Below are positions 3,128 through 48,989 of a stretch of DNA of 64,000 nt, in pieces. Numbering within the stretch: position 1 is the stretch's first letter; each line of letters starts with the position of its first letter. The DNA lies in assembly GCA_963931085.1 (NCBI GenBank), contig OZ006973.1:670812-734811 (forward strand). Direction: 5' to 3'. This DNA is from an uncultured Clostridia bacterium (GTDB taxonomy: Bacteria; Bacillota; Clostridia; TANB77; CAG-508). The notes under the pieces are model-generated. The model was not told the origin of the DNA, did not search any database, and was given only the letters and a program-made list of their open reading frames with translations. A program made the translations under genes and the position numbers.

Positions 3128-3234
3128 AATAATTCCTCCTTTTATAAAATAAATAATATCAAATTAAGTTAAATTAAATAATTCAAATTTAATAATTGTG
3201 TTAAAACTAAAAAATAATACTTAATAACTGAAAA

Positions 3235-3345
3235 ATAAATATTAAAAATAATATTTAAAATAAAAATTTAAAATAATATTTAAAATAAAAATTTAAAATA
3301 ATATTAAAAATAATATTTAAAAATATTAAAAATAAAATTTTAAAT
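3235..3345. repeat. AT-only tandem repeat (about 26-bp unit AATAATATTTAAAATAAAAATTTAAA, 3-4 copies)
   Basis: Direct reading of the sequence. Confidence 0.7.
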
Positions 3346-3372
3346 AAAAACTTAAAAAAATAAATAAGAAAT

Positions 3373-20604: not shown

Positions 20605-21072
20605 ATGTCACTAGAAAAAGCAAAAGAACATTTAAAAAAATATGGGTTAGAAGATAGAGTAAAAGAATATAGTATATCTTCTGCAACAGTAAAAGAAGCT
20701 GCTATAGCAGTAGGTTGCAAAGAAGAAGAGATTGCAAAAACTTTATCTTTTATTGTAGACGATAAACCAATCTTAATAGTAACATCAGGAGATCAAAAGA
20801 TAGATAATCCAAAGTATAAAGCAGAATTTCATACTAAAGCCAAAATGATTCCTTTTGATGATGTTGAAAAGCTAACAGGTCATATGGTTGGCGGAGTATG
20901 TCCTTTTGGAGTTAATGATAGTGTAGATGTATATTTAGATGTATCACTTAAAAGATTTGATATAGTTTATCCTGCATGTGGAACTCCCAATAGTGCAGCT
21001 AAGCTAAATATAGAAGAATTAGAAAAAGCTTCTAATTTTAAAAAATGGATAGATGTATGTAAAAATATATAA
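20605..21072 (+). CDS. ybaK: YbaK/EbsC-type aminoacyl-tRNA deacylase
   Basis: Family size and the GGVCPFG motif. Confidence 0.75.
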   Translation: MSLEKAKEHLKKYGLEDRVKEYSISSATVKEAAIAVGCKEEEIAKTLSFIVDDKPILIVTSGDQKIDNPKYKAEFHTKAKMIPFDDVEKLTGHMVGGVCPFGVNDSVDVYLDVSLKRFDIVYPACGTPNSAAKLNIEELEKASNFKKWIDVCKNI

Positions 21073-21291
21073 AATTAGAAAACATGATATAGAAAAGTAT
21101 AATGGTTTTATAATGAAAGTTTATGAAGAATAATATGTAGAATAATGAAGATGAATAATTATTGATTTAAAATTTAAAGTATGTTATATTTTAAAAAGCT
21201 TAAGCGAAAATTAATCTTGTAGAAAACAAAAGAGAGGGACTAGGATTTATTCTAGTCCTTTTTTGCGTTTAAAAGATAAAGGAGATGTAAT

Positions 21292-22762
21292 ATGATTAAA
21301 TCAAAAATAAATTCACTTTTAACAATAGAATATATGTGCAATGAAAGAGAAAATCAATTTTTCGAAAGGAAAAGTGCTAAAAAAGATATAAGAGAATTAG
21401 CTAATAATATAGCAGGATTTGCTAATGCTAGTGGAGGTACTTTAGTTATAGGAATTTCAGATGACGGAAAATTAGAAGGATTTGAAGAATTTCCAGAAAA
21501 GTATAATAAATTTTTAAAGATAACATCGGGAGACTATTTAAAAACTATTCCAAAATATGAAAATGAAATTTTAAATATAATTAATTATAAAGGAAATAAA
21601 GACAAATTATTATTAATTCATATTAGTCCGAGTATAAATACTTTAATAAGAAATGTAAAAGATGAAGTGTATTTAAGGCAAGGAGATTCTACAAATAAAT
21701 TATCTTCAGAACAAGTTAAAATAATTGAATCAGATAGACATGAAATATCATATGAAGAACAATTAAATGTTAGATCAAGTGTAGAGGATATAGATATACA
21801 GATGGTAGAAACATATAAAAAAGCAATAGGCGCTGATGAACAAGATTTGTTAGATATCTTACGTGCTAGAAGATTCTTAATAAAAGATGATATAACCAAA
21901 AAAGAATACCTTACAAATGCAGGAACATTACTGTTTGCTAAAGATCCATCACTCTTTTTTCCTACAGCCAGAATTAGAATAATAAAGTTTGAAGGAAAAG
22001 AAATGCAGACTGGAGCGGATTTAAATATTGTAAAAGATAAAACATTTGCAATGCCATTATATAAACAAATTAAAGAGTCTCAAAAATTCGTTGACACTCA
22101 ACTTAGGGAATTTACACATTTAAGCAATAATGGAGAATTTATAACAGTACCAGAATATCCTAAATTTGCATGGGAAGAGCGGAATTACTAATGCTATAAC
22201 TCATAGAAATTACTCGATTAGTGGCGAGCATACAAAAATATTTATTTATGATGATAGAATGGAAATTATGAGTCCAGGAGATTTGCCTGGGATTGTTACG
22301 ATAAATAATATTAAAGAAAAACGTTATGCCAGAAATCCCATAATATCACGAACTTTAACAGAACTTGGAGTTGTAAAAGAATTAAATGAAGGTGTTTTAA
22401 GAATATATAGAGAAATGAGTGAATTCTTTCTTGAAAATCCAATTTATATAGAAGAAAAAGGAATTTCTTTGAAATTGATATTAAAAAACAATATAGTAAT
22501 GAGAAATAGAAGAAAGAATGAATCGCTATTAAAAAATAAAAAAATAAACTTAGTATGGAATAATTTAAATTCAATGGAAAAAAAGGTATTGCAAATTATA
22601 TTTGATAAAGGAGATGTAACTCCTATTCAAATAGGTGAAATAATAAATAAAGATAAAAGAACAGTTCAAAGAGTTCTAAAGAAATTAGGTGATAATAATT
22701 TAATAGAATGGTTTGGAACATCAATTAAAGATCCTAAAAAAATTTATAGAATTAAAAATTAA
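21292..22762 (+). pseudogene. AlbA_2 (Schlafen-like DNA-binding) plus HATPase-like 'putative transcriptional regulator/RecG-like' gene, split by a frameshift at about 22166-22191
   Basis: Two overlapping ORFs in different frames (21292..22191 and 22166..22762). Together they match the family: an FERKSAKKDIRELANNIAGFANASGGTLVIG domain and an NAITHRNYS motif. Confidence 0.55.
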
Positions 22763-22769
22763 TTTCTTC

Positions 22770-23089
22770 TGTCGCACATTTGTCGCATCTTTGTCGCATC
22801 TTTGTCGCACTTCTGTCGTATCTCTGTCGCACCTTTGTCGCACTTCTGTCGTATCTCTGTCGCACCTTTGTCGCACTTCTGTCGTATCTCTGTCGCACCT
22901 TTGTCGCACTTCTGTCGTATCTCTATCGTACCTTTGTCGCACTTCTGTCGTATCTCTGTCGCACCTTTGTCGCACTTCTGTCGCATCTTTGTCGCATCTT
23001 TGTCGCACTTCTGTCGTATCTCTGTCGCACCTTTGTCGTACCTTTTATCGTACCTTTGTCGCACCTTTGTCGTACTTTTGTCGCACCGT
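22770..23089. repeat. tandem array of about 29 x 11-bp units TGTCGCAYYTY with a 33-bp higher-order period
   Basis: Direct reading. The units stay in register (one 12-mer) from 22770 to 23089. Confidence 0.95.
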
Positions 23090-23399
23090 TAATGTAATTC
23101 GATTAAAGTCATTTCTACTAATCAAATTTATAAGAAAGAATATTAAAAAAGATATAATCAATAAAAATTAAAGTAATTGTCGGAAAGAAAATAGTATTAT
23201 CCTACAATTAGTTTAAAATATTATTTTTGAGAATAATTATGAGTTATACATATAATTAATATCAAACTCTAAAGAAATTAGCGATATTATTTACTTTAAA
23301 AATTTACAAAAATTAAAAAAATACTACACAAGAAAGTAAATATGTGTTAAAATAATATGCGAAGTTTTTAAAAAATAAAAAATAAAGGAGGAATTATCA

Positions 23400-24128
23400 A
23401 TGTCAGGACATAGCAAATGGCATAATATTGCAGCAAAAAAAGGTAAAGCAGATGCTGCAAGAGGAAAAGTATTTACAAAACTAGGAAGAGAATTATTAAT
23501 AGCAGTAAAGCAAGGTGGACCTGACCCGGCTGGTAATTCAAAATTAAAAGATGTTATTGCAAAATGCAAGGCAGCTAATATGCCAAATGATACAATAAAT
23601 AATGCAATAAAAAAAGCATCAGGAGCTGGAGAATCAGCAAACTATGAAGAAATAACATATGAAGGTTATGGAGTAAATGGAGTTGCTGTTATAGTAAATG
23701 CGTCAACAGACAATAGAAATAGAACAGCTGCAGATATAAGACATGTATTTGATAAAGCTGGAGGAAACTTGGGTACAACAGGATGTGTATCATACATGTT
23801 TGAAAAGAAAGGTGTTATTGTAATTGAAAAATCAAGCACAGATTTATCTGAAGAAGATTTAATGATGCTTGCAATAGAAGCTGGAGCAGAAGATTTTGAG
23901 TCATCAGATGAATATTATGAAATAACAACTGCACCAGAAAACTTTTCAAGTGTAAGAGAAGAACTTGAAAAAAACAATTTAACATTTGTTGAAGCAGAAG
24001 TGCAAATGGTACCAAATACATATGTTAAATTAGATGAAAAAGATTCAGAAAGAATGGAAAACTTCTTAGAGAAACTTGAAGACTTAGATGATGTGTCTAA
24101 TGTTTATCATAACTGGGAAGAAGAATAA
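23400..24128 (+). CDS. yebC: YebC/PmpR-family DNA-binding regulatory protein
   Basis: [10 protein letters not shown]...[11 protein letters not shown]-terminus diagnostic of the family. Confidence 0.9.
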
Positions 24129-43439: not shown

Positions 43440-43565
43440 GGAATTCCTTGCTTATTTTTATATTTTTATATTTTTATATTTTTATATTTTTATATTTTTA
43501 GTTTTATATAATTTTTAATTTTTTAACTTTTTAACTTTTTTTTATTTTTATTCATTTTTATTCTT
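43440..43565. repeat. AT-rich microsatellite-like tract ((TATATTTTT)n, then TTTTTAAC repeats)
   Basis: Direct reading. Confidence 0.7.
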
Positions 43566-43634
43566 TAAATTTGTTTGTTACTTATAAGTATTTATGATAA
43601 AATACAAAAAAGAAATTTACTCAAGGAGGAAATA

Positions 43635-48666: not shown

Positions 48667-48989
48667 ATTATAATATAGTATTTACTATAATGATATATTT
48701 TATTCTTCTTTAGTTTGTTCTGATACTAAATAATAGAGTCGTTATGAATATTAAAAATTAGAATAAGTTAGAAAAAAATAAAATAAAAATAAAATGAAAT
48801 AAAATAAAATATAATAAAAATTAAATTTAAGAAAAGAAAATAAGGAAAATAAAAATAAAATAAAATTAAAATAAAAGAACAAGACAAAAAATAATCAAAA
48901 AAAGAAAGTAGAGTAGATCTACTTCCTTAAGGTGAGCATTTATGTGTTTACAATAAATTTTATTTAAAACATATTAATTTAAGTAAAAC

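Follow-up and report, generated by a model that had tools for sequence, protein, structure and literature searches.

Phased 11-bp repeats behind the stop codon of a Clostridia Schlafen gene as candidate docking sites for the winged helix that the gene encodes

Introduction

What reads a long array of phased 11-bp repeats that begins directly behind a stop codon? The question is raised by a stretch of 64,000 nucleotides from an uncultured Clostridia bacterium (assembly GCA_963931085.1, contig OZ006973.1, positions 670,812 to 734,811 of the forward strand), which is called the window throughout. Positions 22770..23089 of its plus strand hold 29 such units with the core T-G-T-C-G-y-A. The gene that ends in front of them encodes, over two reading frames, a Schlafen protein with a domain of the winged helix-turn-helix (wHTH) type predicted at its C-terminal end, and the array is proposed to be a cognate docking array for this domain. 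A sequence-only reading made beforehand knew of no described element of this form, and none was found in the literature searched for the present analysis.

Prokaryotic Schlafens have recently been shown to be widespread tRNA-cleaving defence effectors (PMC13056530). The tRNA-cleaving anti-phage effector is the Slfn domain. Of 5,930 prokaryotic Schlafens surveyed, 19.2% have the Slfn-HisKinase-HTH architecture (Nat Microbiol 2026, PMC13056530).

Results

The array in the window

The repeat was resolved at two periods by Tandem Repeats Finder (TRF). Period 11 gave 28.8 copies at 22770-23087 with 77% matches and no indels, and period 33 gave 9.5 copies at 22770-23083 with 91% matches and the consensus TGTCGCACTTCTGTCGTATCTCTGTCGCACCTT. 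The pattern TGTCGYAYYTY matched 25 times in the array in a single register, from 22781 to 23078, against 0.11 matches expected (maximum 2) in shuffled sequence. Parsing gave 29 head-to-tail 11-bp units with one 1-nt slip, which is the sole 12-nt unit, at 23045 (TTATCGTACCTT). The unit number, the slip and the 33-bp super-period given by the sequence-only reading were all recovered by these three methods. The CATCTT variants that it placed at both ends were found at the start; the second pair lies at 22979-23000, about 90 nt short of the array end.

The stop codon of the upstream open reading frame (ORF) is at 22760-22762 and is followed by 7 nt before the array starts. The downstream gene yebC starts at 23400, 310 nt past the array end. 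The array has a GC content of 0.46-0.50 compared to 0.17-0.30 in the flanks, in a genome of about 25% GC, and its AT skew of about -0.6 makes the plus strand pyrimidine-rich, both as noted earlier. Window positions 21001-23400 are 100% identical to ENA metagenome contig tig00019283 (L003), which has a long-read-style name and possibly derives from the same source assembly. An Rfam scan of the whole window returned one tRNA only, with no match at the array or in the 23090..23399 spacer. The array RNA folded worse than shuffled sequence (z=+1.86).

Other tandem repeats of the window (3232-3362, 43453-43572 and 48752-48894) are AT-only and of low complexity, and none resembles the GC-rich array. 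They comprise a 25-bp repeat of 5.4 copies, an 8-bp repeat of 14.6 copies and an (AAAAT)n tract.

Recurrence behind Schlafen homologues

Homologous loci were chosen by protein similarity and not by the repeat, with an aligned HATPase_c_4-wHTH region as the query against metagenomes. The scan gave 80 loci of 41-89% identity, mostly with unsplit proteins of about 500 aa. An array was scored where TRF found a period of 10-12 (or 20-23/33) with a start -15 to +80 nt from the stop codon. A post-stop array was present in 63 of the 78 loci having a stop codon, and it usually began between -6 and +24 nt relative to that codon. Outside this stretch 24 such arrays were counted over 348 kb of these loci, a background of 0.0066 per 95 nt. 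Against this background the sites recur beside homologous genes, as cognate operators do. In most of the 15 TRF-negative loci a short motif in 2-4 copies could be seen by eye.

Family arrays range from 3 to 45 units with periods of 10, 11 or 12, and the usual number is 3-8 compared to 29 in the window. By exact-protein look-up, a 64%-identical homologue had six units of TGTCATAGTAA immediately after the stop, and other homologues had TGTCGCAGTAA units or TTGAACGGYTR units. In a Clostridia group the Schlafen gene is split in the same way and the array follows 14 nt past the stop, upstream of yebC in several loci.

Among 28 loci the neighbour downstream of the array was co-directional in 15 and convergent in 13. 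Intrinsic terminators were found 3' of the arrays in several loci and none lay between stop and array, so RNA polymerase must cross the array. The first site thus sits at the end of its own ORF inside the transcription unit, the position that a roadblock would take. In most loci the array motif was not found upstream of the homologue genes, at their own promoters.

Several loci had further features. In L072-L076 (about 3600-5360 in L072) a 64%-identical split Schlafen gene and its array lie inside a Tn4451-like mobilisable element (TnpV, Mob_Pre). Behind them some 540 nt of non-coding DNA are followed by a 64-aa ORF and a 318-aa reverse transcriptase (RVT_1), and this segment may be a retron-like defence module. 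In L116, L140, L161, L170 and L125 the first 150 nt past the stop hold two clusters of 3-4 units, 50-100 nt apart. The spacer between the clusters is a GC-rich hairpin in some, and the arrangement recalls the two iteron blocks of R1 parC. In L087 (3296-5519) the post-stop palindromes are followed by HATPase_c, Multi_ubiq and ThiF/E1-like genes, a ubiquitin-like, defence-type cluster.

Co-variation of the repeat core with the recognition helix

The repeat core was compared with the predicted recognition helix (H3) of the wHTH. The helices KRTVQRVLKKL, RKTAQRILKKL and RRTASRVLSKL accompany TGTCGCA. QRSATRVLKGL occurs with TGTCGGA, QRTATRVLKG with TGTCGTA and KRTAIRIINKL with TGTCATA. Other cores are TTGATARAG with RPTANRILNKL, TTGACTAG with RNTVLSYLRNL, and TTGAACRG with KNTV(L/I)..LKKL. 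KNTVIGMLKKL belongs to the TTGAACGG class, as opposed to KRTVQRVLKKL in the TGTCGCA class. VK(I/V)SRPTLRGL is paired with GGTTCGAGTA and VKVSRQTLRGL with GGTAAGAGTA.

A Mantel test of wHTH distance against array 6-mer distance gave r=0.28 for 41 non-redundant loci (0/5000 permutations). The partial Mantel test of array against H3, controlling for the HATPase_c_4 region, gave r=0.32 (0/3000, 36 loci). The reverse partial test, array against the rest of the protein, gave r=0.19 (2/3000, 36 loci). AT-rich relatives at 55-64% identity had other cores, and GC-rich relatives at 45% kept TGTCGCA. Judged by the partial r=0.32, and by the similar helix and same core found with Fic proteins (below), the site co-varies with the helix beyond phylogeny, as is expected of a cognate operator.

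SoFic-like Fic proteins and the wider pattern scan

When 185,579 genomes were scanned for four TGTCGNANNTN units in phase, 59 loci in many phyla were returned. Pfam searches with 110 ORFs flanking these loci identified mostly unrelated housekeeping genes. An estimated 22 x 4^-7 = 0.13% of any 11-bp tandem repeats match the scan pattern by chance, and for this reason most of the 59 loci are taken to be unrelated repeats. The neighbours and the chance rate together led to rejection of TGTCGNANNTN as a universal motif. Only two groups were kept as related, the Clostridia Schlafen group and a Fic-associated TGTCGCAAGTT group. In viral contigs the same pattern gave 2 uninformative matches.

The TGTCGCAAGTT arrays, of up to 45 units, occur in Bdellovibrionales and Chitinophaga, 3-25 nt past the stop of Fic_N-Fic-wHTH genes. 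The proteins were assigned to the SoFic family by PADLOC (E 9e-63). Their recognition helix RRTLQRDLK resembles that of the window, and the wHTH is the sole part that they have in common with the Schlafen family. Arrays of TGTCGCAAGTT type were found 0-25 nt past the stop in 7/7 evaluable SoFic-like loci, in reversed orientation (L015, L037, L047, L054 and the viral L177-L179). Behind the three SoFic-like genes of viral contigs the units are TTACGACA, CTGTGACA/CTACGACA and TAGGACA, with the reverse complements TGTCGTAA, TGTCACAG/TGTCGTAG and TGTCCTA. The same core in opposite orientation in two families fits recognition of duplex DNA and not an RNA element. In a tblastn search of plasmids the Fic protein had only relatives of <33% identity.

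This order of gene, stop codon and phased repeats characterises the window protein's family as a whole, and likewise SoFic-like Fic toxins whose wHTH is related. Wild-type SoFic is toxic, and a 47-aa antitoxin ORF, 'AS1', has been described downstream of E. coli SoFic; the AS1 protein could not be purified (PMC12249575). The 'AS1' ORF might overlap a post-stop array.

A separate, dispersed repeat family was seen in Flavobacterium. Identical 11-bp TGTCGTATATA arrays lie at the ends of five contigs of one metagenome-assembled genome (L021, L022, L026, L032, L042) and also in two other Flavobacterium genomes (L016, L028). They stand beside unrelated housekeeping genes and no wHTH gene ends at them.

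The Schlafen gene and its frame break

The gene in front of the array follows a ybaK-like (tRNA_edit) gene, behind which there is a terminator-like hairpin on the plus strand at 21237..21258 (GGACTAGGATTTATTCTAGTCC then TTTTTT; the terminator scan reported it on the minus strand). ORF 1 (21292..22191, plus strand, 299 aa) encodes the Schlafen/AlbA_2 domain (Pfam PF04326, E 5.4e-16), the N-terminal part of the prokaryotic Schlafen protein, and in PADLOC its match is to the SLFN part of a pAgo model (E 4.6e-29). ORF 2 (22166..22762, plus strand) encodes HATPase_c_4 (PF13749, E 4.7e-19) and the wHTH, with TrmB, MarR and HTH_24 matches at residues 133-196. The codons of the predicted helix H3 (KRTVQRVLKKLGD, ORF 2 residues 164-176) are at 22655..22693 on the plus strand, as placed by AlphaFold secondary structure. 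The AlphaFold model had a predicted local distance difference test (pLDDT) score of 81-93 in the wHTH and was poor outside it, with a mean pLDDT of 62. Foldseek matched generic MarR/CodY/ScpB/TFE-type winged helices and 3LMM. A PDB sequence search gave a single match, the uncharacterised 3LMM.

In an unsplit homologue the N-terminal 400 residues matched the SLFN-GHKL part of the PADLOC pAgo model, and the C-terminal wHTH had weak PADLOC matches to SoFic and the Csa3/CasR wHTH. All three parts, PF04326 Slfn/AlbA_2, a GHKL-type ATPase-like domain and a C-terminal HTH, are present in the window gene but over two frames, and unsplit homologues of about 500 aa exist. Judged from these domains the gene is probably a prokaryotic Schlafen of the Slfn-HisKinase(HATPase_c_4)-HTH class.

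A candidate programmed +1 frameshift site, GAA GAG CGG AAT TAC TAA, lies at 22174..22191 on the plus strand. Where unsplit homologues have GAA GAR GGR ATA AC, the sequence is GAA GAR C GGA AT, with one extra C, in the window and in two further diverged lineages. The extra C creates a CGG codon, and the 0-frame stop follows three codons later. CGG is used once in 12,213 codons of the long ORFs of the window. Close homologues in the protein database are nearly all called as separate proteins of about 200 aa. The gene had earlier been described as frameshifted, but it is probably not just a broken gene: three diverged lineages retain this 1-nt insertion, at a codon that is very rare. The pattern points to a programmed +1 frameshift, or else to selection for two separate genes, and away from decay.

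The spacer 23090..23399 (plus strand) is AT-rich. It holds sigma-70-like hexamers (23227-23256, 11/12 matches) and the ribosome-binding site of yebC, and is likely to be the promoter region of that gene, outside the array. The gene yebC itself (23400..24128, plus strand, TACO1/YebC family by Pfam PF01709 and PF20772) is the downstream neighbour and is not implicated in the array.

Strain variation at the locus

An identical YebC protein is encoded on ten contigs of the species, of which L003 has the window sequence. In eight of the ten (L001, L002, L004-L009) the Schlafen gene is deleted save for its last ~50 codons, with one common junction directly after the 21237..21258 hairpin. The tenth contig, L010, has the identical YebC, neither array nor Schlafen gene, and another island in their place.

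The nine identical-YebC assemblies with an array carry about 7, 8, 10, 14, 16, 17, 19, 20 and 29 units, numbers that short-read assemblies may under-count. Copy number thus differs within one species, as in a variable number tandem repeat (VNTR) or minisatellite. The array is a true length-polymorphic locus because the strains carry 7-29 units in different orders, and the hypermutable length foreseen by the sequence-only reading was borne out. In 136 units from the 9 strains positions 1, 4, 5 and 7 were invariant (136/136), and positions 6, 8, 9 and 11 alternated between C and T. The 33-bp super-period looks like a recent block amplification in the window lineage and not a functional unit, since the units are ordered differently in sister strains.

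The slot between the ybaK-like tRNA_edit gene and yebC (window 21073-23399; L010 1-4000; L084 3595-6376) is a variable island. AbiEii and metallophosphatase genes replace the Schlafen gene in L010. In a related species (L084) the chimeric remnant of a HAD::wHTH gene occupies the slot, together with a short array and a gene of the beta-lactamase family. The slot looks like a defence or cargo hot spot.

Known element types rejected

A CRISPR array was rejected, in agreement with the earlier assessment, as the 11-bp units are head to tail with no spacers, compared to 23-50-bp repeats with unique spacers in CRISPR. A protein-coding tandem repeat was also rejected. The period is 11, and 10-12 with 3-45 units in relatives, and all six frames are open across the array because the 11-bp unit has no stop codon; the earlier statement that there is no real coding frame therefore stands. 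Plasmid iteron origins were rejected as the neighbours are the Schlafen, ybaK-like and yebC genes and no Rep family was found across diverse loci. Partition centromeres of parC/tubC type were rejected as no actin-like, tubulin-like or ParA NTPase gene was found around the window array or related loci. An operator of the gene's own promoter was rejected on the absence of the motif upstream of the genes in most loci. The phase-variation contingency tract suggested earlier was dropped: the tract lies after the stop codon, ~140 nt upstream of the nearest promoter-like hexamers, and is neither in an ORF nor between such hexamers. The nucleoid-organising role proposed with it found no support.

Discussion

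The favoured explanation

We consider it probable that the array consists of cognate docking sites for the C-terminal wHTH of the upstream Schlafen, with self-limitation as the favoured consequence. The proposal that the units are cognate wHTH sites is, on comparative sequence evidence, well supported. A regulator-binding array with helical phasing, one of the earlier suggestions, gives the best reading of the recurrence, the co-variation and the 10-12-bp periods. The AlbA_2 protein, then named as a candidate binder, is likewise favoured by the post-stop recurrence and the helix co-variation.

A unit of 11 bp is about one helical turn, so wHTH domains can align head to tail on one face of the DNA. 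Head-to-tail binding of one monomer per turn is known for PhoB/OmpR-type winged helices and for TubR on their repeats. In the favoured explanation one wHTH monomer would sit on each helical turn, with one TGTCGyA core each, and the protein would coat the DNA from 7 nt past its own stop. When enough protein had been made the array would be occupied, and RNA polymerase would be blocked at or just before the stop codon. The blocked transcripts would be truncated and would have no stop codon, and products without a complete wHTH would be discarded. The purpose would be self-limitation of a potentially toxic effector. New protein might also be tethered beside its own gene, either as a side effect or in place of the block. 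The 29-unit array of the window would be an expanded copy, which may grow and shrink by slippage or unequal recombination. We infer the binding, its stoichiometry and every downstream consequence from the observed anatomy, position, recurrence, co-variation and polymorphism of the array.

There are precedents for the block and for DNA binding by such domains. LacI bound at O3 truncates the lacI mRNA, which gives SsrA-tagged LacI and limits lacI (PMC3711431). Coupled complexes of transcription and translation are trapped ahead of the stop codon by proteins bound to the DNA (PMC13584721). In Fic enzymes, DNA is bound by the wHTH domain and the activity alters on binding (PMC9755527, PMC10628234, 10.64898/2026.07.09.737422).

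Several observations weigh against the favoured explanation. Twenty-nine units are far more than a roadblock needs. Part of the array/helix co-variation is inherited, to judge from the reverse partial r=0.19. The L094 homologue group has AACTCTCAAG repeats ~21 nt apart, and the L087 group has palindromes (AACCCTGTCA/TGACAGGGTT) and not direct repeats after the stop. A distant Fic-wHTH gene on Enterobacter plasmid p5-20710, the one inspected, encodes a different wHTH and has no array. CccR and SoFic are reported to bind their own promoters (PMC9755527; 10.64898/2026.07.09.737422), and the Fic-wHTH proteins studied autoregulate there and not at 3' ends (PMC9755527). An orphan four-unit TGTCGCAAGTT array was seen in a Planctomycetota genome (L049, 2485-2528) with no gene ending there; an unsplit Schlafen-HATPase_c_4-wHTH gene with a different helix begins 150 nt downstream of it. 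The array is also kept with intact cores in the 8/10 strains that lost the gene, at ~7-20 units in differing orders; these arrays are either relics or bound in trans.

Alternative explanations

The same sites could instead serve for parking or tethering, with newly made effector (a tRNA nuclease here, an AMPylase in SoFic) caught beside its own gene, stored as an inactive DNA-bound filament and freed or activated when infection perturbs the DNA, with no transcriptional feedback. This is rather unlikely, though it has more in its favour than the remaining alternatives. Both array-bearing families are toxic effectors of the abortive-infection type (PMC13056530; PMC12249575), and wHTH-DNA binding switches the activity of one Fic enzyme (PMC10628234). 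Arrays of 3-45 units suit stoichiometric storage better than a simple block, and the wHTH is the last domain to be made, with its sites directly behind the stop. Yet storage has no need of a first site within <=~25 nt of the stop, which is the most conserved feature, and a single chromosomal array holds only a handful of molecules. A still smaller chance is given to the tract being a neutral, slippage-prone minisatellite, perhaps the relic of an ancestral short operator, with no present function. The spread from 7 to 29 copies with reshuffled unit order, the retention of the tract in 8/10 strains despite deletion of the gene, and a super-period that reflects recent block duplication would all suit neutral drift in length. 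Such drift does not account for core positions that are invariant in 136/136 units while others vary, nor for a layout kept in dozens of diverged homologues and a second protein family; in the window strain, moreover, the gene is still present.

It is very improbable that the repeats work at the RNA level, in the 3' untranslated region of the Schlafen mRNA, where they would bind a protein repeatedly or affect stability. The array is transcribed where terminators lie downstream of it, as in several loci, its orientation is constant within the Schlafen family, and the Slfn domain binds RNA (PMC13056530). But a 10-12-nt period has no rationale in single-stranded RNA, and behind SoFic-like genes the core stands as its reverse complement, an equivalence that holds for duplex DNA alone. 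The array also folds worse than shuffled sequence (z=+1.86) and has no Rfam match, and the co-variation follows a DNA-reading helix. Least credible of all is an operator or enhancer-like array that controls the next gene, here yebC. It would draw on the position of the array, with a promoter-like site ~140 nt and yebC 310 nt downstream of it, and on its place upstream of yebC in several related species. Across homologues, though, the downstream gene is unrelated and is convergent in 13/28 loci, the conserved distance is to the upstream stop and not to any downstream promoter, and L010 has an identical YebC with neither array nor gene. YebC, which the sequence-only reading had named for binding tests, is set aside as partner or target on the same grounds, with downstream neighbours 15 co-directional and 13 convergent.

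Wider meaning

A broader idea can be put forward tentatively, as a possibility short of an even chance. The layout may be a general safety-catch for toxic anti-phage effectors, in which a C-terminal winged helix reads its own post-stop array. Polymerase block, an inactive DNA-bound filament, or both would then let the effector respond in cis to its own amount or to the condition of the host DNA. If so, 'AS1' downstream of E. coli SoFic might act as DNA and not as protein.

The array gives the Schlafen HTH a concrete candidate target, and for dozens of family members the recognition sequence can be predicted from the genome. The pairs of helix and site form a natural table that could be used to dissect or re-engineer specificity. 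The shared logic connects Schlafen effectors with Fic toxins of SoFic type. Should the effector prove to be limited or tethered in cis by the array, this would be a new answer to how single-gene abortive-infection toxins stay harmless before infection. The arrays also break short-read assemblies and differ between strains, so they are possible strain markers.

Comparison with known systems

The proteins beside the arrays belong to the Slfn-HisKinase-HTH and SoFic/Fic-wHTH enzyme families. The unit length recalls Pho boxes and other OmpR-PhoB sites, which are 11-bp direct repeats with a 7-bp core and a 4-bp spacer, each bound by one winged-helix monomer. Repeats of 11 bp are also known for SARP and PhoP regulators. 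Pho boxes differ in lying in target-gene promoters, in having 2-6 repeats and in being read by response regulators. Plasmid iterons are direct repeats beside the gene of the wHTH Rep initiator that binds them, and their specificity co-varies between replicons. They are usually ~17-22 bp long and form part of an origin that also has DnaA boxes and an AT-rich unwinding element. The window array has no Rep protein beside it. The partition repeats of tubC are bound by the wHTH protein TubR.

The R1 parC/ParR system (11-bp iterons, PMC2241845) is alike in its 10-12-bp direct repeats in helical phase, its cooperative coating and its place beside the gene of the binder. Both parC and tubC work with a partition NTPase (ParM or TubZ); none is near the array here, and the setting is chromosomal or a defence island. 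In those systems the array overlaps the promoter, whereas here it comes after the gene. LacI-O3 is alike in that a DNA-binding protein has its site at the end of its own coding region, where RNA polymerase crosses it and occupancy feeds back (PMC3711431; PMC13584721). It differs in being a single palindromic operator that loops to O1, compared to 3-45 phased direct repeats. LacI is also a dedicated repressor, compared to a multidomain defence effector here, for which a roadblock is proposed.

Neither a DNA target of the HTH nor a discussion of repeats was found in the Schlafen paper (PMC13056530) by text search. Promoter or non-specific DNA binding is reported in the Fic papers searched, and text search found no mention of post-stop repeat arrays. 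Literature on AlbA_2/HATPase_c_4, COG2865, 11-bp repeats and SoFic gave no description of the arrays. The layout is counted as new because no report was found of arrays directly behind the stop of such defence genes. Phased arrays read by small DNA-binding domains are already known from iterons, parC/tubC, Pho boxes and LacI-O3; their placement past the stop codon, behind genes of Schlafen-HTH and SoFic type, is apparently new.

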